A stretch of DNA of 64,000 nt, from the IMG/VR virus record IMGVR_UViG_3300031994_000033, positions 32,001 to 96,000 of that record; one strand, given 5' to 3'. Below, in pieces: positions 10,788 to 59,759 of this stretch. The stretch's first letter is position 1. Every line of letters starts with the position of its first letter. The stretch comes from a virus. Lineage: Duplodnaviria > Caudoviricetes. The translations under genes and the position numbers were made by a program. Below the pieces are notes generated by a model, which was not told the origin of the DNA, did no database searches, and saw nothing but the letters and a program-made list of their open reading frames with translations.

Positions 10788-10852
10788 TCAGACGAAAATC
10801 AAGCTTCTGATAAATACTTAAATTTCAAGAAACTCTACAAGGAGAATCATAT

Positions 10853-11077
10853 ATGATCACTAACTCTACTGACGCAACCATCGACAGCAACGACTTCATC
10901 ATTCAGTCTATGCGCAAGCTCAAGCAGCGCCTCGAGATTGAAGAGAACGACATCAAGGCTTACAAGATTCCGGAAGGACTCCAGGGCTCTGCTCTCGCTT
11001 CTGAGAAGGCCTACATCAAGGGCGCTCTCGACGAGATCCAGAAGTTCCGCCAGTTCATCAAGGAGATGGGCGTCTAG
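10853..11077 (+). CDS. small hypothetical late protein
   Basis: AAGGAG RBS, GATAAATA upstream, phage-typical codon usage. Confidence 0.7.
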   Translation: MITNSTDATIDSNDFIIQSMRKLKQRLEIEENDIKAYKIPEGLQGSALASEKAYIKGALDEIQKFRQFIKEMGV

Positions 11078-11107
11078 CGCAACTTACCTAAAGTTTGTTG
11101 TCTCCAT

Positions 11108-11139
11108 GAAGCGCTGGTCTAAAGACTGGCGCTTCTTTT
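11108..11139 (+). terminator. Rho-independent terminator
   Basis: GAAGCGCTGGTC-taaa-GACTGGCGCTTC-TTTT. Confidence 0.75.
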
Positions 11140-11350
11140 GTACCCAGAAATCGTCATAAATGCGGTTTTGAGGATGTTTTAAGACGTTTTAAGCCTGTAC
11201 CCTAGTAACTATACCGGTGAGCCATAAAACGTCCTAAAACTGACGTTTATGCGCAAAATACGAGCTGATCAATTTTGCATAAACGGAAAATTCTTTCCGC
11301 AAATAGTTTCTAAATTAACTATTGAAAAGCGCTAGAACGAGGGTAACACT

Positions 11351-14300
11351 ATTTACAAGAATGTCTATTACGACCGTGAGTCAAATTCAATCTACGAACG
11401 TGAAGTCGGTTCGACAGAATATGTCAAGCATCCGTACACGTTCAAGTATTTTATGCCTGATTCATCGGGCGAGAGTCCGATTCGTGACTGCTTCGGCGTT
11501 CCGATGAAAGAGGTTGTATGCAAAACGAAAGAGGACTACCAGATCTATCGCGTGATGGCGAAAAAGATGCGTCTCGCTGAGTCCGACCTCAAACCTCCCG
11601 TAAAATACATTCACGAGAAATACGACACAGCAGAACTGAACTACGAAGAGTACAAGGACTACCGCATCGCCTTCTACGATATTGAAACGCAGACTTCTAG
11701 ACGCTACTACCTCAACAAGGAAGTGAAGCTTCGCTTGATCGAGGACGGTCACGAAGAGACGATGACTCTATATCAGTTCGAGCACACTTGCAAGACGAAA
11801 AAGTGGGAAATCTGGGACATCGTTCGAAACGAATGGCGCAAATACTACGACAGCTGCTTCATAAATCAGGAGTTCCCGAATCCCGAGGAAGCGAACTATC
11901 CGATCAACCTTATCACTGTCTACTCGACGGTCGCTGGCGAGACTTTCACTTGGGGTCTGGAGCCGTATGAGGGCAACTCTCCCGAAGTCACAAACTACAA
12001 ATGGTTCAAGTCCGAACTTGAGATGATGAAGGACTTCTATGTCTGGTTCTGGCAGCAGAAGTTCGATATTCTGACTGGCTGGAACTCTGAGAAGTTCGAT
12101 GATGCGTATATCATCGGCCGTATGCAGAAGATCCAGCGAGAGAATGGCGTCAAGCTCGATTACACGCGTCTGCTTTCTCCGCTCAAACTATCGCCACAGA
12201 AGCGCCCGATCACTGACGACAAGGGTAAAGTGACAGGATATCACTTCTCGTCTCCAGGCCTCTACATGATCGACTATCTGGCGCTCTACAAGTTTATCGG
12301 CTTCGTGAAGAACTCGCCGTCTTGGAAGCTCGACTACATCGGCAAGAAAGAGACTGGCGAAGGAAAGGTCAAGCTTGAATATGGTCTTACCGAGCACTAC
12401 ATCAAGGACTACACGACCTACGTCGAGTATAACGTCCAGGACGTGCGCCTGATGGTGAAGATCGAAGAGAAGAAGCGTCTGTGGCCGACGACTATCGCCT
12501 ACGCCAATGAAGCTCTGATCACTCTTGACTCTGTCTTCGCGATGACGGCCGCACACGACGGCTACATCATGAAGTTCCTCCATGCGCAGAATCAGGTCTA
12601 CAACGACCGCTACGAGAAGCCCGCAGACTGGTGGCACGACGAGGGCTACTTCAAGAAGGATCTCGGAAACGGCATCATCGAGTATCAGAACTGCACGCCA
12701 GAGTCTCCGACTTCGTTCGAGCCTTACGCTGTGAAGGCAGGCTACTGCTACGCTGATCCTGGACGCTACCAGCACAACATGAGCGGAGACATCACGTCAT
12801 CCTATCCTAATCACATCATCATGTACAACATCTCTCCCGAGACTCGAGTCATCAAGCCGAGCCAAGAGGACATCGATTCCGGAAAGGTCATCCGCTCGGA
12901 AGTCAACGGAGTCGGATTCATCAACAACGACACTGCTATTCTGCCGTCTGTCGTCTCGAAGATCTTCGACGAACGTCTCAAGTTCAAGCTGCTCATGCAG
13001 GACGCCGAGAAGGCTGGCGACAAGATCGCTGCCGACCGCTACCGCACGCTGCAGCTCACTCGTAAGAAGCTCATCAACTCTCTATACGGCGCTTGCCTGT
13101 TCCCGCAGTTCCACCTATTCAACATCGACTGCGCTCGCTCCATCACTCGTTGCGCTCGTGTCACCATACGCTATCTCAAGGACAATACGGACCGCTACTA
13201 TCGTTCCAAGTATATCCTCAAGGATTCGATGGACTTCTTCCCGGTCATCAAGATCAACACCAAGTGGTACAAGAAGGAAGACGAAGTCGAGACGGATCAG
13301 GGAAAGATTCTCGCGAAGGACGTAACGACTGCAAACACTATCGGCGGCGCAGCTGTAACGATTTTCGTGAACGATCTCACTCAGAAGCCTCTTCTCAATC
13401 CTATCAAGAAGATCACGTCGGAGAGAATCATCAACGTGGTCTACGACGGAGACTGCCACTACTACAAGCCTGGCGACGAAATCGAAGTCGAGATGGATGG
13501 AAAGAAACTCAAGATGCAGTTGGGAGTCCACGACGGCGGAGCAAGATTCACTGGCGAAGAGACCATCATGGAAGAGCTCAAGGCCAACTTCAAGCATCCT
13601 GACGGCTCTACAATTTCCGGTTTCGATCTCCAGCGCAACGCTAAGATCGACGGACGCCCGATCGACAACGTGAACGTGATCGAGAAGCCAGTCAAGTTCG
13701 TGGATCGCGAGTCTGTCGTCGTTCAGGTCGACACGGACTCCAACTACTACTGCTTCGACGAGCACAAGATCAACCTCTTCCCGTACATGGACGACATGGA
13801 ATGGTTCTACTGCATGGAGAAGCAGATGAACTGGTTCTGGAAGAGAATTCTCGACGCTAAGGCAGAGAAGAACAAGATGCACAACCGCATCATCTTCACT
13901 CGCGAGAACATGTTCTCGAACTTCATCTCTTACGGAAAGAAGATGTATCTCGGAGCAGTCGTCGACAAGGACGGCAAGTTCTTCGGCTACGAGGAAGATC
14001 CGCACAAGCACTTGAAGATTCAGGGTCTAATTCTAAAGAAGGCAGAGTTCCCAGTATTCTGTCAGGAATATGCTGTCAAGATCACTGCGGACGTTCTACT
14101 CGGACAGAGCAAAGAAGAGACGACGAGACAGATTCAGGACGCTTACTTGAAATTCAAGGCGTCAAAGCCAGAGGACATCTCGGCGTCAAGAACTATCGGC
14201 GACCTGTCTGTGATGGATCACGAAATCGACTGGTACGTCAAGAACGGCCTCACATATCCAGACCACATTCACTACTGCGCGAAGATAGGCGTAAACTTCA

Positions 14301-15067: not shown

Positions 15068-16573
15068 ATGGGACGAATAACTGCAACTAAGATCAACGAG
15101 ACGCACTTCTTCATTCAGGTCAATGACGGAGATATTCTATACGAGCTGGACAACGCTTTCGCTATCCACAAGGACGGATATCAGTTCGTACCCGCTTACC
15201 AGAATCACACTTGGGACGGAAAGACTCACTTCTTCAAGACTACGACTCACAAGTTCCCTATCGGACTCGTGGATGAGCTGATCAAGTGGTGCGACAGCAA
15301 GAAGTACGAGCTCAAGTTCGAGAACTACGAGAAAGAGCCAGTCGAATGGCTGTCCAGAGAGAAGTTCGAAGCCAACTGCAAGCAGATAATGGCTGGATCG
15401 AAATATCAGCCGAGAGACTATCAGCTTGACGCTGCGTTCGCTGCTCTGAACGGAAAGCGTGGCATTCTGGAGTGCTGCACTTCGTCTGGCAAGTCGCTAA
15501 TGATCTACCTCATCATGCGCAACCTGATGATGGAACGCGGCTACAAGAAGATGCTCTTGATCGTTCCGTCCATCATGCTAGTGACTCAGATGTACAAGGA
15601 CTTCGAAGACTACGGATGGTCTGACCTGGACAAGTGGTGTGAGCTCCAAGACAAGGATCACGTCCCGACCTACCACAAGACGATTCTGATCACGACCTGG
15701 CAGTCGTTGATGAAGCAGTCAGCAGACTACTTCGAGGACGTGAACGCCGTCATAATAGACGAAGCACATGGTCTCAGGGGTGTTCGCGTATCGACAATGG
15801 TACAGTTCTGTATCAATGCAGACTTCAAGATCGGTACGACTGGTACACTGCCTACTTCGGCAGTCGAGAAGTATGACGTGAAGTCTGTTCTCGGCAAGAC
15901 GCTCTACAAGATCAGTTCTGAAGAGTTGATCAGCAGAGGATTCTTGACAGACATCATCGTCGCTAACCTGTTCATGCAGTACCCGATCGACTTCATCAAG
16001 GAAAATCAGGAGAGAACGTATCCCGAAGAGGTAAGACTAACTGAAGAGTACGAGGACCGTATGCACATCCTCGACATCATCCTGAGAAAGACAGACTTGA
16101 ATCACAACATGCTCATTCTGTGCAATCACGTCGACCATCTAGAAGCTACGATCGACTATCTGAAGGAGCACGCGAAAGATCGAAAAGTCGTCAAGATCAC
16201 TGGATCCGTGAAGTCTGCTGAGCGTGAATTCATTAGAATTTCCGCAGAAGAGTCTGACGGATTGATCATCGTTGCGACTTACGGCACCATGTCCACTGGC
16301 GTCAACATCAAGAAGATTCACGAGATCATCCTGTTCGCAGACTCGAAGTCCAAGATCAAGGTTCTCCAGTCCATCGGCCGTGGACTCAGAAAGCATCCAG
16401 AGAAGTCGAAAGTGATCATTTACGACATCATCGACGACATGCGGTACAAGTCGAAGAGAGGCAAAGTTCACTCGAACTATCTCTATGACCACTGGCTAGA
16501 GCGCTCAAAATACTACATAGAGCAGAAATTTAAGCAAAAATCGACAGTTTTTCCCATCTCCAAGTTAGTATAA
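15068..16573 (+). CDS. uvsW: UvsW-like SF2 DNA helicase
   Basis: WDGK N-terminal motif, PRDYQ, TSSGKS (Walker A), IIDEAH, GTTGT, STGVNI and QSIGRGLR. Confidence 0.9.
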   Translation: MGRITATKINETHFFIQVNDGDILYELDNAFAIHKDGYQFVPAYQNHTWDGKTHFFKTTTHKFPIGLVDELIKWCDSKKYELKFENYEKEPVEWLSREKFEANCKQIMAGSKYQPRDYQLDAAFAALNGKRGILECCTSSGKSLMIYLIMRNLMMERGYKKMLLIVPSIMLVTQMYKDFEDYGWSDLDKWCELQDKDHVPTYHKTILITTWQSLMKQSADYFEDVNAVIIDEAHGLRGVRVSTMVQFCINADFKIGTTGTLPTSAVEKYDVKSVLGKTLYKISSEELISRGFLTDIIVANLFMQYPIDFIKENQERTYPEEVRLTEEYEDRMHILDIILRKTDLNHNMLILCNHVDHLEATIDYLKEHAKDRKVVKITGSVKSAEREFIRISAEESDGLIIVATYGTMSTGVNIKKIHEIILFADSKSKIKVLQSIGRGLRKHPEKSKVIIYDIIDDMRYKSKRGKVHSNYLYDHWLERSKYYIEQKFKQKSTVFPISKLV

Positions 16574-19683: not shown

Positions 19684-19704
19684 TCGCTCTTATGAAACAA
19701 AAAC

Positions 19705-19737
19705 AGAGCTGCCTAACCACGGCAGCTCTTTCTCTTT
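19705..19737 (+). terminator. Rho-independent terminator
   Basis: AGAGCTGCC-taaccac-GGCAGCTCT-TTCTCTTT. Confidence 0.7.
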
Positions 19738-21443: not shown

Positions 21444-21486
21444 GGGTTTACAAACTCTGCCGAAATACCTATATTAACAATGTAAA
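21444..21486 (+). promoter_or_regulatory. early sigma70-like promoter
   Basis: GGG-TTTACA-N17-TATATT-N6-GTAAA; the same architecture occurs at four loci. Confidence 0.8.
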
Positions 21487-21517
21487 ACAAAGATCAACTC
21501 CAACAAGGACCAGAACT

Positions 21518-22039
21518 ATGATCAACACCGCCGCACTTTCCGCCCTAAAGGGAATCCACAACACCGTCAAGATCATCACGACGAAGCAGGGCTCACCTTT
21601 CAACGAAACCAAGAAGAACAAGGCTGCTCTTCTAGAACTCGGCATTGACGTCGACAAGATGGTCAAGGTAACCACTTTCAACTGCTTCGCAGGCTCCGAC
21701 ATCGACTACAATGAACTCTACGAAGAACGCGCTGGCGAGAAGAAAGAGTCTCGCCCGATCAACACCAACAACACTTGGGTTGAAGGACTCGAAGGCATTC
21801 TCATGACCAACGCGACGACTGGCAACAAGCTGCTCCGCATCTACACGGACAACGACCACAAGGCTAAGTCGATCTACATCTACGAAGGTCAGATCTTCGA
21901 CGACTATAAAGAAAAATATGCTGAATATCTCAAGAAGCCCCGAAACATCAACGAGAAGGCTGAAGGACTCTGCCCTATGTCTCTCACCCTTGAAACTATC
22001 ACCTCTATCGAAGTCGATGGCAACAAGATCAAGCTCTAA
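21518..22039 (+). CDS. early hypothetical protein
   Basis: Early promoter and AAGGACC RBS. Confidence 0.75.
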   Translation: MINTAALSALKGIHNTVKIITTKQGSPFNETKKNKAALLELGIDVDKMVKVTTFNCFAGSDIDYNELYEERAGEKKESRPINTNNTWVEGLEGILMTNATTGNKLLRIYTDNDHKAKSIYIYEGQIFDDYKEKYAEYLKKPRNINEKAEGLCPMSLTLETITSIEVDGNKIKL

Positions 22040-26807: not shown

Positions 26808-26830
26808 CAGAAACTATATAAAAATCGTCA

Positions 26831-26862
26831 AAATCTCTGTAGAATTTCTACAGAGATTTTTT
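26831..26862. terminator. palindromic terminator-like element
   Basis: AAATCTCTGTAGAATTTCTACAGAGATTTTTT. Confidence 0.65.
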
Positions 26863-26871
26863 CTTGTTTTA

Positions 26872-26914
26872 GTGTTTAGAATTCTCATGAAAATACCTAT
26901 ATTATAGGCGTAAA
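26872..26914 (+). promoter_or_regulatory. early sigma70-like promoter
   Basis: TTTAGA(26875)-N17-TATATT(26898)-N6-GTAAA. Confidence 0.8.
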
Positions 26915-26933
26915 CAAAACAAGGACCGTCAAT

Positions 26934-27239
26934 ATGAAGTACACGAAAGACCAAAAGACCCGCATGATCGCTAAGCTAGAATCCATGAAGAGCGGCACTA
27001 TCTTCGACCTCAACAAGAAGGACGTCTGTCCCATCAAGTGCAAGCTCGTCAAAGACCGCAACTCTCTTTCGATCCTCGCTACAGAGCTCAACGACGAAGT
27101 TCTCTTCACTGCTAATGGTCCTCATAAAAAGGTCATGGAAACTGCCGTCGACTGCATCGAAGACTACATCAATCACTGGGATCTGATGGTGAAGCAGTTC
27201 TTCATCTCTAAAGCCCGCTTGGAAGGCTACGAACCTTAA
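26934..27239 (+). CDS. early hypothetical protein
   Basis: Early promoter and AAGGACC RBS. Confidence 0.75.
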   Translation: MKYTKDQKTRMIAKLESMKSGTIFDLNKKDVCPIKCKLVKDRNSLSILATELNDEVLFTANGPHKKVMETAVDCIEDYINHWDLMVKQFFISKARLEGYEP

Positions 27240-27300
27240 CAAATTTGTTTATTTTAACATTGTGAATTGTTAAGATCTAAAAATATCTTATATTATAGAT

Positions 27301-27371
27301 AACGGCTGGTCGTTGTTAGCTCCGGATCAGCCTGAGCGCTACCGTCCTGGTCCTTCGATAGCGCTCTTTTT
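27301..27371 (+). ncRNA. putative ~70-nt two-hairpin small RNA with anti-RBS loops
   Basis: TTGTTA-N16-TATATT promoter at 27267-27294. Stems 27304-11/27325-32 and 27334-41/27359-66, then a T5 tail. No ORF. Confidence 0.55.
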
Positions 27372-27389
27372 GTGTATAAATACTTTGAT

Positions 27390-29774
27390 ATGATCATTGA
27401 AGTGTTCAAAGAGAGTGTAGAGAAAGTAAGGCTGTTCGACGCTATAAATCCGGACTATGTCAATTGGATGTTCGACAGCAAGAACCGTCGAGACGGAGTC
27501 TCTGCTCCACCGTATAGAAACGAAGAGCAGGTTATGCCTGATGGATCTGAGAGATCCTTCATAAATGGGTTAGCGCCGCTTGATCACGATCTGCCTGGAA
27601 CTATCTACTTCGACACTGCAAACGGCGTTAGCCGAGTATACAGCACTCAGAAGAACATCGTCCTTGATTATGCTTCTCCTGCGTTGATGAGCTATACTGG
27701 ATCGTTCACTGGTTTCGACTCAGAAGAGAGTGAATATCAATGGACGCTCGAGCTAGTCATAAAAGACGATAGCGGAATCGATCCAGGAGCATATACTCTC
27801 CAGAAAGTCGTCGGCGAAGAGCGGACTGATCTAGTAAAGTACTCTAGAAAGAACGGAGACGCCCCGTATTGGAACAGCGAAGCTGAGATAGACAACGCTG
27901 GAATACTAGTCGAGGTGACGCAGTCTCTGGTCGACAAGAGCATGTATAGAGTCTCTGTCAGGATGGATCCGAAAAACGGCGAGCTATCTGCGCTACTGAC
28001 GAAGTGCGACGAGGATGGCTATTTCGAGTATCTTCGACTCGGCTTCACATTCTACGACCTCGCTGGAAATGCTCTGACTGGAACACTAGATAAGCCCTTC
28101 GTCAAGTACGACATATCGAGAGAAGAGCTGTTCAAAGATGTCCGTAAGCTGTCTATGTCGTTTATCGACACATATCCCTCAAATCTGTTCATCGACGAGA
28201 ACGTGATAGGCAAGACGACTATATCAGTTGCGAATCCTAACGCTTCACTGATTGAATATGGCTTCAAAATCAAGATTGGACTCAGATCTGACTCTGTCGG
28301 CTATCTATCTGGAGCAACAGACGAGGATCTAGAGAACGGAACGGCTACTCAGCTAGTTGACGGAATCGATAGAAGCGGATCAGTCATCGCTTACGCATAT
28401 CTCGATGGATCAGTCGGAAATCTCGAATGCAGCATATCGGGAGAAACTATCGCGTTTGAGCTAGACAAGAGCATCTCTGCAAAAGTCAGATCGATGACTT
28501 ATGTCGAGAAAGAGCTAGGAACTTTCATAACGGAGTGTGAAGACAATAAGCGAAAGATATATGTCGATCCATTTGTTCCTAGCGTATTGAAGAACGAGAA
28601 GATCTTCGGTCTCTGTAAGCTGTTCGAGAGATATCTCAACAGCATGTACACTCCATTGTCAGGAGACTGCCGAATAGGAATTCTGGAGAAGATCGAGAGA
28701 GTTGGAGAATTCAAGGATCCAGACTTCTGTGAGCCAGAACTTTTACCTAATTTTGCTGAAGAGCATGGATCAGAGATAACATTTAACTACCAGGACGTCA
28801 AAGAAGCAGCTGAGATTCTAGCTAAGTACGAGTCTAGCGGAATGACAGAAGACGGCAATGAGCTGACGAACAAGATCTACCGTCGTTACTACAGCATTCT
28901 GCCCTATATCGACCGCTGGAAAGGAACTATGCGCTCGATCGAGCTTCTCTATCGAGTTCTCGGAATAGACGCTAAGCTTAATCCGCTATGGGAAGGTCCT
29001 ACTGGCGACATGGTCGAAGAAGATAGAGCTGGATCTGACTACAGGCTATCCTCTCATCTGTCGTTGACTTTGAAATCTGAAAAGATCTCTACTGCTGACA
29101 TGAAGAAGCTTTCGAACTTCGCTATGAAAGCGGTCAAGTCGATACTTCCAGTCAATCGAGTGATATCTGACGTCAAAGTATATGACGATCTTGTCAGCGA
29201 TCGGAATGAGACGTTCTTGTTCACGACAACTAGCGTCATTGAGCAGAAGCCGTCTTTGATGGAGAAGATCGCCTTCGCTTGGCAGACGAAGAAGATGAAG
29301 AAGATCGTAAACGTATCTGGAGACTCTTTTGATATAGTCATTCCGATGTTCGCCGAAGAAGTCGAAGTTGGACACACTTCAGATGCTAGCATGACATTCT
29401 CGGTCCCAGACAACTGCGCATTCTATTTCACTCGTTTCGATAGAATGATCAAGGCTTATAATGGCGAGAAAGATTTGACGCTGAGCGTAGCCGGATTATC
29501 TGGCCACTGTCTAGTTCCAAAGAATGTCAATATAACATTCAAAGTGATCGGGGTTTCTCTTGGCAGAAACACGATCAAGATCAAAGCGAAGAAGACGAGA
29601 AACTATCAGTCTCTGATCACTGTCTACAACAACAATCTTGACAGCACAACTAGCTATATAGCGGCAGCATTCAAGTTCTCTAGAGCAGTCGATGACTATT
29701 GCGAGTCGATGTCGCTAGCAGACTATGACATACAAGAGTCTCTTACGACTCCGTATCAGTACGAGGAATCCTGA
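27390..29774 (+). CDS. baseplate wedge-like structural protein
   Basis: DPDFCEPELLPNFA...WKGTMRSIELLYRVLG...KSILPVNR (gp7/P2 gpI-like motif). TATAAATA 7 nt upstream of ATG 27390. Confidence 0.6.
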   Translation: MIIEVFKESVEKVRLFDAINPDYVNWMFDSKNRRDGVSAPPYRNEEQVMPDGSERSFINGLAPLDHDLPGTIYFDTANGVSRVYSTQKNIVLDYASPALMSYTGSFTGFDSEESEYQWTLELVIKDDSGIDPGAYTLQKVVGEERTDLVKYSRKNGDAPYWNSEAEIDNAGILVEVTQSLVDKSMYRVSVRMDPKNGELSALLTKCDEDGYFEYLRLGFTFYDLAGNALTGTLDKPFVKYDISREELFKDVRKLSMSFIDTYPSNLFIDENVIGKTTISVANPNASLIEYGFKIKIGLRSDSVGYLSGATDEDLENGTATQLVDGIDRSGSVIAYAYLDGSVGNLECSISGETIAFELDKSISAKVRSMTYVEKELGTFITECEDNKRKIYVDPFVPSVLKNEKIFGLCKLFERYLNSMYTPLSGDCRIGILEKIERVGEFKDPDFCEPELLPNFAEEHGSEITFNYQDVKEAAEILAKYESSGMTEDGNELTNKIYRRYYSILPYIDRWKGTMRSIELLYRVLGIDAKLNPLWEGPTGDMVEEDRAGSDYRLSSHLSLTLKSEKISTADMKKLSNFAMKAVKSILPVNRVISDVKVYDDLVSDRNETFLFTTTSVIEQKPSLMEKIAFAWQTKKMKKIVNVSGDSFDIVIPMFAEEVEVGHTSDASMTFSVPDNCAFYFTRFDRMIKAYNGEKDLTLSVAGLSGHCLVPKNVNITFKVIGVSLGRNTIKIKAKKTRNYQSLITVYNNNLDSTTSYIAAAFKFSRAVDDYCESMSLADYDIQESLTTPYQYEES

Positions 29775-44335: not shown

Positions 44336-44370
44336 ATTTCTCATGAAAATACTTATATTTCAGGTGTAAA
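44327..44370 (+). promoter_or_regulatory. early sigma70-like promoter
   Basis: TTTAGA(44331)-N17-TATATT(44354)-N6-GTAAA. Confidence 0.8.
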
Positions 44371-44393
44371 TAAGAAGAATTCAGGAGTTATCT

Positions 44394-44720
44394 ATGACCA
44401 ACAATCTGCTCGACCTCAAGACTAACATCGACACCATTCTCGCTGTCCGAGAGAAGCTGCTCGGCGACTGGGAATGTCTTCAATACCGAGACGTGGACAC
44501 TGAATCCAGCGGTTACTGGGTGAAGGTTCCGGTTCTCACCAAAGACGGCGAACACAAGAACGCTGCACTCGGCATCTATCTATATTCGGGTAAGGGCATC
44601 ACAGTCAACTTCAACAGCATGGAGTTCTACAAGAAGCTACCGGGCGTTCCGTCTTACGAACAGGTGATGGACACGATCGAAGACGGCATGGAAGAGCTCG
44701 GCTACAAGCTCGACGCATAA
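44394..44720 (+). CDS. early hypothetical protein
   Basis: Early promoter and AGGAG RBS. Confidence 0.7.
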   Translation: MTNNLLDLKTNIDTILAVREKLLGDWECLQYRDVDTESSGYWVKVPVLTKDGEHKNAALGIYLYSGKGITVNFNSMEFYKKLPGVPSYEQVMDTIEDGMEELGYKLDA

Positions 44721-45236: not shown

Positions 45237-45279
45237 GGGTTTAGAATTCTCACGGATTTACCTATATTAGCTGTGTAAA
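45237..45279 (+). promoter_or_regulatory. early sigma70-like promoter
   Basis: TTTAGA(45240)-N17-TATATT(45263)-N6-GTAAA. Confidence 0.8.
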
Positions 45280-45298
45280 CTTCAACAAAGGACCAACT

Positions 45299-45592
45299 AT
45301 GAATCTCCACGACCAGCTTGACTACAAGATCGAACCGATGGGCGCACTCTGTTACCTGTCTAGCGCAAGCCATATCAATCACAAGCGCATCGAGGAGTCA
45401 GACTTCGTCAACAAGTACGACCACGACTCTGAGAACGCTCAAGAATACGGCTGCGGAAACATGAAGGCAGACGTCAAGGCATCAACTCCTGAAGTACTTG
45501 CTAAGTATGGAATTGACGAGGACGAGTACAAGATCATCGCTTTCGAGATCTCGCATGCTCTCTCGTTCGGTCCTTGCGGATGGTGCGTATGA
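45299..45592 (+). CDS. early hypothetical protein with C-terminal CGWCV
   Basis: Early promoter and AAGGACC RBS. Confidence 0.7.
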   Translation: MNLHDQLDYKIEPMGALCYLSSASHINHKRIEESDFVNKYDHDSENAQEYGCGNMKADVKASTPEVLAKYGIDEDEYKIIAFEISHALSFGPCGWCV

Positions 45593-49096: not shown

Positions 49097-49540
49097 ATGA
49101 TTCTCGCAATCCTATTGATCATCTTCATCATCGTACTCATATCAGCACTACTGTACATCCTCGGACGCTTAGTAGCAAAGCGTATGATCTCAAGGCGAAA
49201 GAAGTATCAAGATCATATCGACAGCATGGTAGAAGAGCTGTTTCCTCCATCTATCCAAGCGGCTATCCAAGACTCTTCTGCTATAGACACGACTATCCAA
49301 GCGGCTATCCAAGACACTACTGTCCAAGAAGCTGCTGTCATCGAGTCAGATCTCCAGCGCCAAGAGGCCAAGCGCAAGATGGTCGCAGACATCCGCAAGT
49401 ACTTCAATCAACGCAAGATAGACGCAACACTCGCAAAGGTACAGGGATCTAGTGACTTCGTTAAGATCAATCCGTCAGCAGGATCTTATAGCGAGCAGAT
49501 CATCCCGTCTCCTCCATCTCTCCAGATGATCCTCGAATGA
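49097..49540 (+). CDS. membrane-anchored protein carrying the paralog-family C-terminal helix
   Basis: Hydrophobic N-terminal TM; KRKMVADIRKYFNQRK; internal CTATCCAAG repeats. Confidence 0.7.
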   Translation: MILAILLIIFIIVLISALLYILGRLVAKRMISRRKKYQDHIDSMVEELFPPSIQAAIQDSSAIDTTIQAAIQDTTVQEAAVIESDLQRQEAKRKMVADIRKYFNQRKIDATLAKVQGSSDFVKINPSAGSYSEQIIPSPPSLQMILE

Positions 49541-49544
49541 CATC

Positions 49545-50250
49545 CTCCCATCCCTATAAGGATCTCTGTTATAGTCCCCATACTTGGAAAGTGTCCTCTT
49601 ATTGGCACTATTTCCGGCAGGTTTCCTGGCCGCTATACCCGGCCCAAAACCGGCAATTTCACCGGGTCCCAGTATAAAACGCTCTCACTTCCAAAACTTT
49701 GTATTAAGGCATATAGCCGTCTATCCGTCCCGTCTCACCCGAAGGTGCCCTATATCGCGACGGGATCCCTCACGTTCACGCACGGAGAAATTTCCAAAAA
49801 AAAATTCCTAAAAAAATTTGACTCCTCGCAATCGCCACGCAGAATCCGCCAAAACCTCGCAGAACCCGCAAAACTCATGTTATGTTCAAAACTGGGTTTA
49901 TGTTCAAAAACCCATCTTATGTCCAAAACCCCCGTTATGTTGCCGTCCGAAGAAATTTTTCCAAAAAATTTTTCCAAAAAAAATTGACCCACGTGCGCTT
50001 GCCTCTATCGCAGATGCCTCTATCGCAGATGCCTCTATCGCAGATGCCTCTAAATGCGCTTTATCTTACATCGCGAGAAATTTTTTCCAAATTTTTTTTT
50101 CCAAATTTTTTGGGCTTCTTCAACACCCCAGCTGATGGCTTCGTGAGGGAAACGTAACGTAATGAAAATATGATGAAGCTGAGAAAACTTCCTGAGACAG
50201 AAAATTTTCTATTGCAGAAAAGTTTCTAGCACAGAAAAGTTTCTATATAT
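49545..50250. repeat. non-coding repeat-rich region (A/T tracts, 15-bp x3, ~18-bp x4 and 17-bp x4 repeats); candidate origin or genome terminus
   Basis: GCCTCTATCGCAGAT x3 (50001-50045); TTATGTYCAAAA at 49880/49898/49917; CAGAAAAKTTTCTA at 50198/50215/50232; three AAATTT..CCAAAA..TT blocks. Confidence 0.8.
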
Positions 50251-50274
50251 ACTGTACAAGGAGCTTATGAACTC

Positions 50275-50820
50275 ATGAGAAACGAAGAGAAGCTTTCGAT
50301 AACTTCACTGACGATCACAGCGAGAGGCGTGATCGACTTGTACCGCTGGTGCGCAGAGAGACTGAACAAGCCGTGCTCTGATCCCGTCGTCGGCTTAGCG
50401 ATCTCGATCAACGAGATGATTCTGGCTGAGCCCTATCGAGAGATCGCTCAGCGGCTCTGGTACAGAGAGGCCGATCCCAAGTGGCAAGACTGGCGTCGAG
50501 CCGAGGCTGGATGCGTCGAGAAGTGGGCTGATCGAGACAACAGCGGCAGCCTCAGGCGTGACCGGAACGGCGATCCGACTTTCACCGAGAACGCCGTCGA
50601 GATGGACAAAGAGATCGAGACGCTGAAGCAGTCGGAAGAGTTCAGGGAGCTGTGGGAGAAGATCCGCAGCTCTCGTGAAGCGAACGAGGAGGTCCTGTCG
50701 AGCGCATCGACGGTCAAGGTGTGCTGCATCGACTGCTGGGACCACTGCCCATCAGACGCTTCGCCGAGAATTCTGGGACTGCTCATGGGCAGAGAAGTTC
50801 AGAGACTGATGCAGGAGTGA
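50275..50820 (+). CDS. hypothetical protein
   Basis: 181-aa ORF with an AAGGAG RBS. Confidence 0.65.
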
Positions 50821-51593: not shown

Positions 51594-52171
51594 GCTACGC
51601 TTACAGAGATCTGTTCGACGACGACGATGACGACGACGAGGACTTCGATGGCGAAGCCGACGGATACGGATACGGCGACGACGACGAAGTCCTGTCTGCT
51701 TTCGATCGAGACGCTGTGCTCTTCAACGAGATCACAGCGAAGCAGATCAATCGTGAGCTCGTCTCTCTGTCCAATCGAGAGCTTCTGGAGTTTCTCCAGT
51801 GGGAGCTCGACGAGCTGAAGTTCACGGAGAGCTCTGAGCTGGTTCTCGTCGGAATCGAGTTCGACGATCAGTACATCCTGCAGTTCTACAACGTGAGAGA
51901 GGACAAGACGCTCAAGACGGCTACTGGAGCTGGAAACGTCTACATGCTGATCAACGGATGGATATTGAGGACGCTCACTGACTTATATGTCTCTGAGCTA
52001 TACGGCGAGCTGGGAGACGTGTATCCCTCTGATCTCACGGACTGCTACCTGAGCATTCTGACAGACGTTCTCGACTGGAAGTCTGAGACTGGCATCGAGC
52101 CAATCAGCTCTCTGTCTCCCGAGGACGACGGACCGCTCGAAGATAGTGGTTCGGAACGTTCAGAATCGTGA
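51590..52171 (+). CDS. highly acidic hypothetical protein
   Basis: Poly-Asp N-terminus; ATGA coupling. Confidence 0.6.
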   Translation: MSYAYRDLFDDDDDDDEDFDGEADGYGYGDDDEVLSAFDRDAVLFNEITAKQINRELVSLSNRELLEFLQWELDELKFTESSELVLVGIEFDDQYILQFYNVREDKTLKTATGAGNVYMLINGWILRTLTDLYVSELYGELGDVYPSDLTDCYLSILTDVLDWKSETGIEPISSLSPEDDGPLEDSGSERSES

Positions 52172-52541
52172 CGCCGGCCGGAGTCTTCTTGTCTCCCCTC
52201 AGAACGAGAGCGTCCCATAGCTGGACGCCTTCGATCACGAGTCCCCTTCTAACGATCTTGTACAGACATCCGTCTCTGGGATCCAGAGCGTCGACGCACT
52301 CGACGCCGACTTCGTTATCGATATGCTGTTCTTGCGCAGTAGGCTCTGCGTGCGCCATAGAGTACTGTTCTGTGGCCTTTTCGGTCTCAGCCAGATGTTC
52401 AGACGGCTGAAGCGCTTTCGCCTCTTTTACGGCGTTCTCGAGCGGATTCTTGATCCAGCTAGGCGTTCTCGGGTTTGTCGCGATCTTTCGGATCGCTTCG
52501 ACTAGAATCTTGATCTGCTGTCTCTTCGTGTCTTCTGTCAT
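52104..52541 (-). CDS. hypothetical protein
   Basis: GGAG RBS and GATAAATA on the minus strand; overlaps the convergent gene by 68 nt. Confidence 0.6.
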   Translation of the reverse strand: MTEDTKRQQIKILVEAIRKIATNPRTPSWIKNPLENAVKEAKALQPSEHLAETEKATEQYSMAHAEPTAQEQHIDNEVGVECVDALDPRDGCLYKIVRRGLVIEGVQLWDALVLRGDKKTPAGVTILNVPNHYLRAVRRPRETES

Positions 52542-52649
52542 TCTCTATCTTTCTCCGCTGCATCTCAGCTCTTCAGTTTAGATATTTATCTGTGTATGAT
52601 CTTGCGCTATAAATAAAGCATAGAACATAGCGATCGAGGCGAAATCGAG

Positions 52650-54026
52650 ATGATAGTATCTGGTGGACACATTTTAGCGATAGATGAAGTAGAGCACGAC
52701 TTGAGCCTGTATGGAGACGGGGTCGGCCTTCCGCTTGGCGTCAGGAGAGACTACGTCGACAAGATAGAGTCCGTCTCTAGCAAGCTAGACGTGGTAGAGT
52801 TTCAAGAATGGTCGGCGCAGACTGAACACTGGGACGTCGAGGAGTACTCTGGCGCAGATGGAATCGAAGTCAGCGGACACGTGATATTCGCTGATGCATC
52901 TCCTATCGTCGGAAGCGGATCAGTAGTGATTCTGCCAGGAGAGGACGGCTCGGTCGTCGTATCGGGAGAAGAAGTCGATCTGAGCGGCTATGCGACAGAA
53001 GAATGGGTCCGAGAGAGCTACACTCCTAAGCTAGAGCCATACGATGACAGCGTTCTGCTGGTCGGCAGCGCTAACGGCGAATACGACTGGGTCAAGATCC
53101 GTTCTTCTAAGTTCGGCAGCTCGCTCGTAGACTCTTCTGCCGATCTCGTCTGGTCTGAGGACAGCGATGCGCATCTCAGCGAGAACGCAGTGGAGCTATG
53201 GAGCGAGTTCTCCGGAATCGGATTCGGCGCAGAGAGAGCTTACGCTGACGTCGAGGGAAATCCGTTCTTGGACACTTACGCCACGATCGTGAGCGTGAGC
53301 TCTGGGCTAGCGCAGAAGCAAGACGAGCTTCGCTTCGGATATGACGCTTCTGGAGAGATCGTATCCATCAACAGCAGCGCTATAGCGCAGACCAAGCAAG
53401 AGCAGGCCGACTGGACAGAAGAAGACTCTTCTGTTCCGTCTTATATAAAGAACAAGCCAGACACTTCTGAGCTAGTCGAGGGCTACGGCATCGTCTTGAC
53501 ATACGAGCAGGGAAGCCTGATCGTCTCGACTTCTGGCATGGCTAGTTCGGGCTATGTCGATCAATCAGTCTCTGGAAAGATGGACAAGTCCTCTTCAGCA
53601 GACTTCTATCCGATGGCTGCGAATCCGTCTGGCTATCTGATCCATTCTGATCTGAACGATTACGCTACGAAGTCAGATCTAGACTACGTATCGGGTGCAG
53701 TCGATGACTTATCCGATGACCTCGACGACGTCTCCGCTAGCATACATGACGCCAAGCTGAAACTGCAGCTCGGCTCGGGCCAGGCTTCTGATACCGGGTT
53801 CACCGCAAATGCGGCATCGGACACCACGGTGACTATTCCCGAAATGACCGGGGCTACGTCAGCTGCCAATGGTGTTGCGGGACTTGTACCTGCCCCAGCT
53901 GCCGGTGACGAGGACAAGGTCTTGAAGGGTGACGGAACATGGGGTGAAGCTGGAAGCTCAGTTAGAGTCATCTACGATGCAGTCAACGAAGAACTGCATC
54001 TCGACTTCAGCAATGGAGGTAACTAG
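52650..54026 (+). CDS. tail fibre/appendage-like structural protein
   Basis: Late promoter; QADW......SYIKNKP, NPSGYL and GLVPAPAAG...LKGDGTW fibre motifs. Confidence 0.7.
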   Translation: MIVSGGHILAIDEVEHDLSLYGDGVGLPLGVRRDYVDKIESVSSKLDVVEFQEWSAQTEHWDVEEYSGADGIEVSGHVIFADASPIVGSGSVVILPGEDGSVVVSGEEVDLSGYATEEWVRESYTPKLEPYDDSVLLVGSANGEYDWVKIRSSKFGSSLVDSSADLVWSEDSDAHLSENAVELWSEFSGIGFGAERAYADVEGNPFLDTYATIVSVSSGLAQKQDELRFGYDASGEIVSINSSAIAQTKQEQADWTEEDSSVPSYIKNKPDTSELVEGYGIVLTYEQGSLIVSTSGMASSGYVDQSVSGKMDKSSSADFYPMAANPSGYLIHSDLNDYATKSDLDYVSGAVDDLSDDLDDVSASIHDAKLKLQLGSGQASDTGFTANAASDTTVTIPEMTGATSAANGVAGLVPAPAAGDEDKVLKGDGTWGEAGSSVRVIYDAVNEELHLDFSNGGN

Positions 54027-56762: not shown

Positions 56763-57068
56763 ATGATACTGACGCACGGAGCGAATAGTCTAGATAGAGG
56801 CGGTGGAGCGGCGGTTCAGGGCTGGACAAAAGAAAATGTCCCAGCTGGCGTTCAGATTACTCATGATTTTGGGGACGGGTCTGGCGCAGTTCCAGCTATA
56901 CCTACCGACAGTTGCGGTGTGAGAAACGACATCGTATCAGTTACTAGGTATGATGTTCACGTCGACAGTTGCGGTGTGAGAAACGACATCGTATCAGTTA
57001 CTAGGTATGATGTTCACGTCGACAGTTGCGGCGTGAGAAACGACATAATTTCAATTGAATTTATTTAA
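56763..57068 (+). CDS. small protein with a 19-aa tandem repeat
   Basis: AGGAGG RBS; DSCGVRNDIVSVTRYDVHV repeated. Confidence 0.65.
   Translation: MILTHGANSLDRGGGAAVQGWTKENVPAGVQITHDFGDGSGAVPAIPTDSCGVRNDIVSVTRYDVHVDSCGVRNDIVSVTRYDVHVDSCGVRNDIISIEFI
56906..57046 (+). repeat. 57-bp in-frame tandem repeat, 2.5 copies
   Basis: Units start at 56906, 56963 and 57020. Confidence 0.95.
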
Positions 57069-57083
57069 AAGGCGGTAAAAACT

Positions 57084-58187
57084 ATGGCTAAACTAGGCGG
57101 AGCCCTTATCGGGTATGGAATCAGAAAGAAGAACGGCGAGGAAAGGAAAGTAATCTTTGACAAGCCAATCCACAATACAATCACAAAATCTTGCTTGAAC
57201 AACCTTTTGAAGTTTAACGGCGGGAATGGTTTATCTTCGAATACGCAATATCCTGGACTCGATATGTGCAGTATATTTGTAAAGTCTGTCGACTTCAATG
57301 GTTCCAGCAGTAGGTATGGAGTGTTTAATTCATGTGCGCTGGGAAACGGAACCGGGGTAACGTCCGTAGATGACACGCAACTAAAAAATAAAATTGGTGA
57401 TTATACAGATACGAAAAAAACAGGTAATGGCTGGTGTGGCTATTCGCTTGACTATCAAAACGCAACTATCAGATTAAGAGTTTCGCACACACACTCAATA
57501 AATGAAAATTTCACTATCAAGGAAATAGGCTGGTTTAACAGGATATACCCAGACGGCGTTTACTCCCTATCATCCAGAATTCAACTAGATAATTTCATAG
57601 ATGTTGAAAGCGGAGATGAATTTTACTCAATATACGAAATTATTGTTTCATTTCAAGACGAAGAAAAAGTTCCGGAATTTTCGGGGCTGAATGTTGGCGG
57701 ATACTCTGTCAACGCTTGCACGATTCCGACATACTCTAATGCATGCTGTTGTTTCCCATATATCAATACAAGTGGTACGGGATCCATTCATATTAGTAAT
57801 GGTTGGCCTGTAGTGTCCCAATTCTCGTGTTGGATAGATTTTGTTTGGACTCAAGTTCAGTATAAGGTAAGAATCTTAAAAAGAAATTGGGCGAAAAACA
57901 AGCCTATCACGCAACAAGATGCAACGATTCTTAATTACGGTTTCGTATACGAAAGTGTCGTTCGCGATTATACGGAAAATTCTTTTTACCGGGATGTTGA
58001 ATTCACGATACCGCAGTCCGCGCTCGGGGCAGACGTATATGGGATTGAAATTCTTGGCACCTTATACCGCTTCGGCACGTTTGACGAACAAGATAATTTT
58101 ACGCCAACGCCAATAACAATAAATTCCGCGTTGAAAATTACTTGCCGCCAAAGCTGGAGCACCGACTTGCTCACACCCGCCGGGTAA
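57084..58187 (+). CDS. tail-fibre-associated hypothetical protein
   Basis: HNTIT...ALGNGT...DTQL...IKEIG pattern typical of tail fibre/collar N-termini. Confidence 0.55.
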   Translation: MAKLGGALIGYGIRKKNGEERKVIFDKPIHNTITKSCLNNLLKFNGGNGLSSNTQYPGLDMCSIFVKSVDFNGSSSRYGVFNSCALGNGTGVTSVDDTQLKNKIGDYTDTKKTGNGWCGYSLDYQNATIRLRVSHTHSINENFTIKEIGWFNRIYPDGVYSLSSRIQLDNFIDVESGDEFYSIYEIIVSFQDEEKVPEFSGLNVGGYSVNACTIPTYSNACCCFPYINTSGTGSIHISNGWPVVSQFSCWIDFVWTQVQYKVRILKRNWAKNKPITQQDATILNYGFVYESVVRDYTENSFYRDVEFTIPQSALGADVYGIEILGTLYRFGTFDEQDNFTPTPITINSALKITCRQSWSTDLLTPAG

Positions 58188-58290
58188 ACGCAAACTCGAC
58201 GGATAAAATGAAAAACAAAGACTCCCCGCGAACGACGGTGGCAGCAGTTACCCGGTTCCCCGGGTGCCCTATTTCCGCATATAGGTGCCC

Positions 58291-58332
58291 TGTGTTGCAT
58301 ATGCCGCCGTGATATTGCGCATATGCAACACA
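58291..58332. repeat. 14-bp perfect inverted repeat
   Basis: TGTGTTGCATATGC ... GCATATGCAACACA. Confidence 0.85.
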
Positions 58333-58377
58333 TGGCCAAATGTAAAGATAATTTTACCACATTTCTTACAGTTTCCC

Positions 58378-59759
58378 TACAAAATCCGGCAGGAAAGATG
58401 CTGTCCCAAATTGAAGGCATATGAGAGCCTGGCAGAACAAAAATTAAAAAGAACTTGAAAAATAGGCGGTCGCAATTAAGCTATATTTGAAAATGTCAGG
58501 CTGAAAGATTTTAGCTAGGAGGATTAAATGGATATACATACACAGAATCACCTGAATTATAGTGGCCGAGTCAATTTAGGAAGCTTTTATACCCCTTATA
58601 AATATGTCATGCTTGTTAAAGGATGGCTTGAAAAATACGGGCTGACGGATGGCATGACTATTTTGGATAGTTCTTGTGGCTATGGGGCTTTTTTTGAACT
58701 TCAGGACCTTTTGCCGAACAACACCTATATTGGAAACGATATCGATTCTGTGGCCGTAGGCAAGGCGTCGGAAATGTTTCCGAAGGTTCGGACTTACAAC
58801 AAGAACGCCCTTTTGAATGTCTCGCGGAAGCTTTATAATATCGGTGCAAAAGACAAGCTTGTTGTGGTGGGGAATCCTCCTTATAACGATGTCACCTCCC
58901 AGATAAATCAGAAGGTTAAAACTTCTGATATGCAAATCGATGCCGATATAAAAACCAGGGATTTGGGATTGTCGTCGTTGTTGTCCTATAACAAACTTGC
59001 GGCAGATTATGTTGCTGTTTTGCATCCGCTTTCTTACCTGATAAAGAAGGCGAACTGGACGGCAGCGCGAAAGTTCTTCTTGAACTACAAGTTGCTGGAG
59101 CATGTGGTTTTTAATAGCCAGGAATTTGCAAACACTTCCAAGACGACCGGGTTCCCAGTAGTGGTCGCTTTTTACGAAAGAAACCCGTTCGAAAGCTTGA
59201 GTTACGAGGATGTCGTCCGGATGACTTTCCGTACGGTGGAAGGCAAGGAATTTTCTCTTTCGAACTGGGACTATGTGGCGGATTACATTGAAAAATATCC
59301 GCACAAGAACCGGTATGAACCCGAAATCCTCTATTATACGCTTCGCGATATCAATGCGCTGAAGCGCAGCAGGACCTTCGTTAAGGATCGTTGCTCCAAT
59401 GCGGTTGATGTGGACCCGGAAAAACTTCCTTATTACTGCTATTTGGATTGCTTCAAGAAATATGCGAAAATTCCCTATTATATGGGGAATTTCGATGTTC
59501 CCTTTGACAGGAAGACTTTCCAGAGCATAGAGAAGGCTGTTGTAGCCATATCGAAATATGACCATCCGGACGTTTTTGGGGAGAGCCGCAAACCCTCTGC
59601 AAAGACAGAGCAAAAGGTAATAGACTATATTGAAGGTATCTTGAACCGATAAGCACAAGAGAGAATTGCGATTGGAATACAATCGATGAAGATTGAACTG
59701 GCAAAAAGGAGGGTCTGTTCGTTTGCCTCCGTTTTTACAAAATCCGGCGGGAAAGATGC
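58378..59759. mobile_element. methyltransferase cassette bounded by 24-bp direct repeats
   Basis: TACAAAATCCGGCRGGAAAGATGC at 58378-58401 and 59736-59759. Confidence 0.6.
58528..59652 (+). CDS. orphan N6-adenine DNA methyltransferase (gamma motif order)
   Basis: GSFYTP, LDSSCGYG (motif I), GNDID and GNPPY (motif IV). Confidence 0.88.
   Translation: MDIHTQNHLNYSGRVNLGSFYTPYKYVMLVKGWLEKYGLTDGMTILDSSCGYGAFFELQDLLPNNTYIGNDIDSVAVGKASEMFPKVRTYNKNALLNVSRKLYNIGAKDKLVVVGNPPYNDVTSQINQKVKTSDMQIDADIKTRDLGLSSLLSYNKLAADYVAVLHPLSYLIKKANWTAARKFFLNYKLLEHVVFNSQEFANTSKTTGFPVVVAFYERNPFESLSYEDVVRMTFRTVEGKEFSLSNWDYVADYIEKYPHKNRYEPEILYYTLRDINALKRSRTFVKDRCSNAVDVDPEKLPYYCYLDCFKKYAKIPYYMGNFDVPFDRKTFQSIEKAVVAISKYDHPDVFGESRKPSAKTEQKVIDYIEGILNR

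Follow-up and report, generated by a model that had tools for sequence, protein, structure and literature searches.

Between a 101-aa early gene (26934-27239) and the gene for a 794-aa structural protein (27390-29774), both on the + strand, lies a short unit of two hairpins (27267-27371). The stretch of DNA analysed (the window, 64,000 nucleotides) covers positions 32001-96000 of a 131.6-kb virus record, 46% G+C, which is referred to below as genome G000. The completeness of G000 is estimated at ~52% (CheckV), and it thus represents half a genome. The + strand holds 145 of the 161 crude gene calls. This crude gene map has long stretches without a called gene at window positions 11077-11552, 49540-50275 and 57068-58528.

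Public phage records gave no nucleotide or protein match to the element region or to its neighbour genes. The 794-aa structural protein has 62 metagenomic homologues with identities of 28-91%, and the loci of relatives were fetched as the DNA upstream of the genes encoding many of these homologues. Because the loci were reached via a neighbouring protein, the sampling of the element is independent of the element and of its loop. Two whole relatives, G001 (243 kb, with terminal repeats) and G003 (248 kb), were compared using crude gene calls made as in G000.

An array of short motifs begins right after the stop codon of the 101-aa gene and occupies 27237-27272, between this stop codon and a -10 box. 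It consists of TAACA (27237), TAACA (27255) and TGTTA (27268), separated by N13 and N8. The last motif overlaps the -35-like hexamer of a promoter-like site on the + strand, TTGTTA (27267-27272), 16 nt, TATATT (27289-27294), which has 9/12 matches in a consensus scan. A transcript made from this site would start at about 27301-27302, which is 2-3 nt ahead of hairpin 1. Hairpin 1 (27304-27332) has an 8-bp stem with one G.U pair (27304-27311 with 27325-27332) and a 13-nt loop, GUUGUUAGCUCCG. Hairpin 2 and its tail (27334-27371) consist of an 11-bp, GC-rich stem with one C.A mismatch (27334-27344 with 27356-27366), an 11-nt loop, UCCUGGUCCUU, at 27345-27355, and a run of five U (27367-27371) directly 3' of the stem. 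This is the make-up of an intrinsic terminator, a GC-rich hairpin followed by a U-run on the transcribed strand. A simple terminator scan, which allowed for loops of 3-8 nt, missed hairpin 2 because the 11-nt loop exceeds this range. As no terminator lies between 26934-27239 and hairpin 2, the mRNA of this gene should also end in the element. For the 75-nt stretch the folding energy is -27.7 kcal/mol (z = -2.6 relative to shuffles), a value that is modest taken alone. An earlier description of the locus, made by reading the sequence only, had given the same positions for the unit and for the loop of hairpin 2, and every one of its coordinates is correct.

A T4-type late promoter, TATAAATA, is located at 27375-27382 on the + strand and leads into the 794-aa gene. 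As it begins 3 nt after the terminator U-run, the element is positioned on an early/late boundary. There are 17 sites of TATAAATA on the + strand, mostly just ahead of genes, and the same position of the motif is kept in relatives. Late genes such as 27390 start only ~7 nt past TATAAATA and have no Shine-Dalgarno sequence (TATAAATACTTTGATATG). Such late messages are nearly leaderless and would therefore escape any anti-Shine-Dalgarno (anti-SD) RNA.

The covariance models of Rfam 15, including those for C4 antisense RNA, RsaE and CsrB/RsmZ, gave 0 matches at gathering score in the whole window, and no tRNA or tmRNA was found. The best matches by E-value in 27150-27450 were P26 (14.9 bits, 36 needed) and mir-2513 (15.7 bits, 89 needed). 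Two open reading frames of 26 and 38 aa run over the element, and peptide coding by them was ruled out: hairpin-1 sequences differ completely among the relatives, so that neither frame can be conserved. The unit has no conserved open reading frame, in agreement with its earlier description as ORF-less.

The element was found in over a dozen metagenomic relatives; most of the loci fetched have it in the same place, just ahead of the late promoter. The stems of hairpin 2 are built from at least four unrelated sequences (GAGCGCUACCG, GAGCACUGCCG, GAGACGAACU, CUGGAGCUGCC). In an alignment of 11 sequences, compensatory double changes occur in 10 of the 11 pairs of this hairpin and 98.3% of the cells are paired; the observed covariation score is reached by 0/500 shuffles, and slid controls collapse. 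The loop of hairpin 2 is 11 nt long in all 13 variants folded, with CUGGUCCUU invariant. Such a loop is bigger than a terminator needs, which suggests that the loop itself is under selection. Hairpin 1 is present in the relatives carrying the element; its stem sequences differ completely and its loops are C/U-rich. In 8 variants there are G.U pairs that would be C.A mismatches in a minus-strand RNA, and for 12 of the 13 variants the fold of the + strand is at least as good as that of the minus strand. The G.U pairs, the U-tail, the orientation of the genes and the conserved -10 box agree in placing the RNA on the + strand. The two-hairpin unit at 27267-27371 is confirmed as a real conserved structured RNA element of this strand.

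The covariance model of the element (R1) finds one copy per genome. A weak match at window positions 19697-19731 (18.9 bits) was rejected as an unrelated two-way terminator. In G003 (L009, L062; G003:C1 ~10800-11000), foreign sequence is found between the U-run of the element and the late promoter of an 836-aa gene; it looks like an insertion made exactly at the junction of terminator and late promoter.

The early genes of these phages carry a ribosome site of their own. When the strict early promoter is defined as TTTA[CG]A-N16-18-TATATT, AAGGACC is the top 7-mer at the ribosome sites behind such promoters in three of three genomes (G000, G001 and G003). In G000 it is carried by 4/9 early genes versus 2/152 other genes (Fisher p 6.7e-5), in G001 by 16/26 versus 5/285 (p 3.7e-16), and in G003 by 12/28 versus 4/300 (p 1.7e-11). 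The ribosome sites of non-early genes have AAGGAGA instead. The sequence-only reading had described AAGGACC as a site shared by early-promoter genes, and both the individual sites and the enrichment behind early promoters bear this out. The sites at 21505, 26921 and 45288 are each 11-13 nt ahead of an ATG and behind an early-type promoter. An early promoter with its leader (21447-21517) brings AAGGACCAG, at 21505-21513, in front of gene 21518-22039. The 101-aa gene is preceded by an early promoter (TTTAGA, 17 nt, TATATT) and a short leader (26875-26927) with the tag AAGGACCG at 26921 (AAGGACC itself 26921-26927). Gene 45299-45592, the first of a paralog operon, follows an early promoter and leader (45240-45298) with AAGGACCA at 45288-45295; all three are on the + strand.

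Tagged genes, dispersed along the genome, number 5-6 in the half genome G000 and 16-21 per whole relative. Early cassettes built as (stem-loop)-GGTTTA(G/C)A-N17-cTATATT-N6-GTAAAC-TTCAAC(A)AAGGACC-N5-ATG are repeated in the window (26830-26934, 21447-21518, 45240-45299 and 44340-44394) and at genome positions 19817, 113096, 117000, 122879 and 125665. Part of the spread of the tag is due to such duplicated promoter-leader cassettes. The tag is not merely a copied cassette, since the leaders differ in length and sequence while the continuation of AGGA recurs: 38 of 56 early AGGA-anchored sites continue with CC, then mostly with A.

The loop of hairpin 2 had been claimed to be complementary to this ribosome site, and the claim stands: the loop is open, and the tag to which it is complementary is specific to early-promoter genes here and in G001 and G003. 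Opening the loop costs 0.08 kcal/mol, which makes it an accessible C/U-rich seed of the kind found in anti-SD small RNAs. The strongest target predicted is gene 21518, with an uninterrupted run of 9 pairs and a duplex of -15.6 kcal/mol (rank 1/161; net -13.9), gene 45299 ranks third (duplex -12.5 kcal/mol, net -11.3), and gene 26934 has a net pairing of -11.0 kcal/mol. Opening of the targets costs 0.6-1.7 kcal/mol, and the net energy is -11 to -14 kcal/mol for these three genes and for the tagged gene at genome position 117000, which is beyond the window. In G000 the mean duplex of the loop is -10.3 kcal/mol with early start regions versus -6.7 with the rest, a gap reached by 0/300 shuffled loops. 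In G001, 33 start regions pair at -12 kcal/mol or better versus 8.9 +/- 4.8 for shuffled loops (0/200). The excess of strong targets in the half genome G000 alone is not significant (8 versus 3.7; 13/200 shuffles). The element thus has a seed complementary to several ribosome sites beyond chance and a Rho-independent terminator at the 3' end, as anti-SD small RNAs do. The loop and the tag are both invariant across the relatives, which amounts to co-conservation, not co-variation.

Two details proposed for hairpin 1 are not supported. The second copy of the anti-tag sequence that was read there, CUGGUCGUUGUU (27306-27317), does match at 11 of 12 positions, but half of it is inside the stem and 11.9 kcal/mol are required to open it. 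The pairing suggested between the hairpin-1 loop and the ribosome site of gene 44394 did not hold up, ranking only 17th among the 161 genes, and the loop has no preference for early genes in G000 (140/300 shuffles do as well).

The following observations bear on how the RNA would be made. In eight stand-alone variants TTATATT is invariant and is positioned 7-10 nt ahead of hairpin 1. Identity over the 52-nt promoter region is 73-83%, compared with 64-69% over the initial 900 nt of the gene next to it. Variants of the L041 type have a regular early promoter, TTTAGA-N16-TATATT, as their upstream site. The -35 hexamer of the site described here is poor (TTGTTA; ATGTTA also occurs), and the promoter is a putative one. 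The TAACA/TGTTA array is the only cluster of at least four such motifs within 80 nt in G000, and likewise in G001; eight relatives show no change in TAACA or in the TTA of TGTTA. The array is also kept in two relatives without the hairpins (L004 and L070), in which the 794-aa gene site is devoid of the element and the gene next to it retains AAGGACC. Within 8 kb, the distant L042 shows neither tag nor element. The array may be an operator at which a DNA-binding protein regulates either the RNA or the late gene, and the overlap of the poor -35 with an array unique in both G000 and G001 suggests control by a dedicated DNA-binding factor.

Several relatives carry the element at the 3' end of a coding gene. 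The stop codon of a 115-122-aa membrane-protein gene comes immediately ahead of the hairpins in L003, L006, L008-L010, L060 and L061, and a 143-aa gene precedes them in L043, with no adjacent promoter in either case. A free-standing small RNA is therefore not universal. Action in cis is as possible at the present locus as action in trans, since the element should also terminate the upstream AAGGACC-tagged mRNA. The 101-aa protein encoded by this mRNA, whose gene is always the next one upstream, was considered as a partner of the RNA. It is 33-93% identical in eight relatives, and its model, a confident one (pLDDT 91.7), has a helix, four strands and two helices; no Pfam or PHROG family was found for it, and no Foldseek match in the PDB.

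Loops of related design are found in other terminators of the relatives. A second anti-tag terminator abuts the late promoter TATAAATA in L046 (G001:204765, minus strand), L049 (G003:75582, + strand) and L053 (G002:34468, minus strand). It consists of GGTCCCGTCTCC, a 24-26-nt loop containing CAACUGGUCCUUGU, then AGGAGACGGGAC and U5, and its loop is complementary to ACAAGGACCAG over 11 nt. The gene upstream of it (374 aa in G001) has an AAGGACC ribosome site in G001, G002 and G003. This gene has no homologue in the half genome G000; the locus falls in the missing half.

Partner loops of some relatives, including loops of hairpin 1, are the canonical 16S anti-SD sequence (CACCUCCUUU, GCCUCCUUU). 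In L041, L056 and L063-65 the anti-tag loop sits on a new stem and is followed by a terminator whose loop, CUUCACCUCCUUUGU, is the 16S anti-SD sequence, and in L067, L069 and L071 GCCUCCUUU is displayed in hairpin 1. A further early unit without an open reading frame is found on the minus strand of G003 (L098 ~15900-16070; G003:C1:235900-236070), again followed by a late promoter. It has an early promoter (GGTTTACG...TATATT), then ~135 nt with a CUUCUCCUUCCC stretch and a hairpin, and a terminator, GCCCAGTCCAG-UCACCUCCUAU-CTGGACTGGGC-U6, the loop of which (UCACCUCCUAU) is again the 16S anti-SD. This unit is absent at the matching place in G000 (window 52171-52650). The canonical anti-SD loops of the relatives reinforce the reading of the element as a putative anti-ribosome-site RNA.

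The computation shows the structure and strand of the element, the conservation of its loop and promoter region, the early specificity of the tag, and the accessibility and energy of pairing; production of the RNA, its pairing in vivo, repression as the effect, the timing, and action in trans or in cis are inferred. The stretch would encode a non-coding RNA of ~70 nt, from about 27301 to 27372 on the + strand. This RNA would be made in two forms, as a short transcript initiated at a weak promoter of its own, which probably depends on a factor, and as the 3' end of the upstream early mRNA; some relatives would have only the 3'-UTR form. The open loop UCCUGGUCCUU would pair over 7-9 nt with the tag (AAC)AAGGACC(A/G), which replaces the usual AAGGAG(A) Shine-Dalgarno sequence on the promoter-proximal early genes of this phage family. 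With the Shine-Dalgarno sequence covered in this way, the 30S subunit would be kept from binding, and the mRNA might become exposed to decay. The RNA, being stable, would accumulate and lower the translation of the early set, sparing the genes led by AAGGAGA. Base pairing that hides the Shine-Dalgarno sequence connects the invariant open loop most economically with the early-specific ribosome tag. That the RNA represses the tagged early genes by pairing, at least partly in trans, is on balance considered somewhat probable.

The element might instead act only in cis, as a module of the 3' end. The terminator loop would then fold back on the AAGGACC site of the same mRNA, limiting translation once the transcript is complete or joining the 5' and 3' ends for stability, with no free small RNA and no regulon-wide action. 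The mRNA of 26934-27239 does carry both the tag and hairpin 2 with no terminator between them, the gene just upstream in L043 has AAGGACCAG, the gene before the second anti-tag terminator is tagged in G001, G002 and G003, and a gene is joined at its 3' end to the element in L003, L006 and L008. A pure 3' UTR, however, fits poorly with a conserved -10 box at a fixed distance and with upstream DNA that is better conserved than coding sequence. The gene immediately upstream has no tag in L003 and L006, the further unit in G003 and the L041-type unit have no open reading frame at all, and 16-21 tagged genes per whole genome face only two anti-tag loops. An exclusive action in cis is therefore judged unlikely, though it deserves to be kept in mind. 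A slightly smaller probability is given to the view that the element is a strong but ordinary terminator, shielding the late structural gene from early transcription. Its loop would be kept because a protein of the phage or the host binds it, for example a factor for termination or stability, and its complementarity to the tag would have no pairing role. A GC-rich stem and a U-run 3 nt ahead of a late promoter, here and at two other loci in the relatives, would suit such a terminator, and the RNA-RNA pairing is a predicted one. The tag, too, could be read by a protein, for example as the site of a RegB-like nuclease, as T4 RegB cuts the GGAG of early Shine-Dalgarno sequences (PMC3014915). On the other hand, keeping the loop at 11 nt, and that of the second locus at 24-26 nt, works against termination, and two independent loop contexts complement the top early 7-mer over 9 and 11 nt, an accident estimated at ~3e-4 per loop. 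A terminator bound by a protein would also leave aside that the partner loops of the relatives are the canonical anti-SD sequence. The RegB and RegA families gave no match in G000, G001 and G003, a weak argument as control genomes are silent too.

Two other readings concern what the loops imitate and which strand presents them. The C/U-rich loops could be decoys of the 16S rRNA 3' end that soak up Shine-Dalgarno sequences generally, including those of the host, or a factor attacking the anti-SD region. The loops CACCUCCUUU, GCCUCCUUU and UCACCUCCUAU of the relatives do equal the 16S anti-SD core, and the hairpin-1 loop in the window has GCUCC. The invariant loop, however, reads GGUCCUU instead of CCUCC, its pairing with early start regions is 3.6 kcal/mol stronger than with the others, which are of the AAGGAGA type, and the hairpin-1 loop here has no target preference; the decoy is accordingly considered improbable. 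A minus-strand RNA presenting AAGGACCAGGA loops as a CsrA/RsmA sponge, or an inverted repeat acting in the DNA for cassette recombination, is considered very improbable indeed. The minus strand does fold (-26.5 kcal/mol, z = -3.1), with two GGA motifs in the loop that it would form, the sequence CTAACA, 16 nt, TATAAT on this strand is promoter-like, and T4-type phages are described as shuffling promoter-stem-loop cassettes (PMC4122927). Against the sponge, the GGA motifs are on the minus strand only, where the G.U pairs of 8 variants turn into C.A mismatches and 10 of the 13 variants fold worse; the U-run follows the hairpin of the + strand, on which 145 of the 161 genes lie, and the hairpin-1 loops of the minus strand are mostly devoid of GGA. 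Against recombination, an inverted match of 9-11 bp is too short for homologous recombination, and the covariation of the stems points to selection at the RNA level.

Repression by pairing with the tag, as preferred here, would have counterparts among bacterial small RNAs. Anti-SD small RNAs with C/U-rich loops include RNAIII and RsaE of S. aureus, LhrC of Listeria and RoxS of Bacillus. Like these, the element would be a short hairpin RNA with an open C/U-rich loop directed against several ribosome sites, with a Rho-independent terminator and a predicted block of the 30S subunit. Unlike them, it is encoded by a lytic T4-like giant phage, its loop fits AAGGACC and not the generic GGAGG, its predicted targets are the phage's own early genes, and it has no Rfam similarity. 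In small RNAs of the MicL, DapZ and CpxQ types, which are derived from 3' UTRs, the small RNA shares the terminator of an mRNA. Similarly, one terminator hairpin here would serve a long mRNA and a putative short RNA, and there are variants with and without an internal promoter.

Among phage RNAs, the c4 antisense RNA of phages P1 and P7 is ~70-77 nt long, its loops pair around the ribosome-binding site, and it blocks translation (PMC12197685). The element would resemble it as a phage RNA of similar size with a loop that pairs with ribosome sites, placed in the same transcription unit as a target. It differs from c4, which controls one operon (icd/ant) for immunity in temperate phages, in that the tagged genes are scattered, the phage is T4-like with late TATAAATA promoters, and there is no match to the Rfam C4 model. 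In T4 the endoribonuclease RegB and the repressor RegA act on early mRNAs that bear a mark where translation is initiated (GGAG for RegB) and are inactivated there, which speeds the early-to-late switch (PMC3014915). The logic proposed here is the same; however, the agents in T4 are proteins, whereas the agent proposed for the element is an RNA and the mark is AAGGACC. The PeSL cassettes of T4-type phages, composed of a stem-loop, an early promoter, a Shine-Dalgarno sequence and an ATG, have been described as recombination or shuffling modules (PMC4122927, PMC2839356). The modules of the tagged early genes conform to this description, for example the stem-loop 26830-26860, the promoter 26875-26903, the AAGGACC leader and the ATG at 26934. 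The element itself is not of this kind: its order is promoter, hairpins, terminator, it has no Shine-Dalgarno sequence or ATG, it is single-copy, and PeSLs have not been described as partners of antisense loops. The mechanism suggested for the element would thus be that of the known anti-SD small RNAs and of c4 RNA, and the recognition of a private tag in a T4-like phage appears to be undescribed in the literature found. Literature searches gave no account of T4-like phages having a conserved RNA by which a private early ribosome-site tag is recognised.

To our knowledge, the temporal control of lytic phages has been explained almost wholly by proteins, namely sigma and anti-sigma factors, RegA, RegB and nucleases. 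The clade of ~245-kb T4-like phages considered here might, tentatively and with less than an even chance of this being right, shut off its early genes in trans by means of RNA, with several terminator-borne loops that are anti-tag (CUGGUCCUU) or, in part of the clade, canonical anti-SD doing the job of T4 RegB and RegA. The AAGGACC tag is in any event useful for spotting the early genes of these giant phages, which are unannotated. If the proposed repression is true, the phage has a compact programmable switch, in which a tag of 8-9 nt, together with one loop, would let early messages be told apart from the rest during translation.
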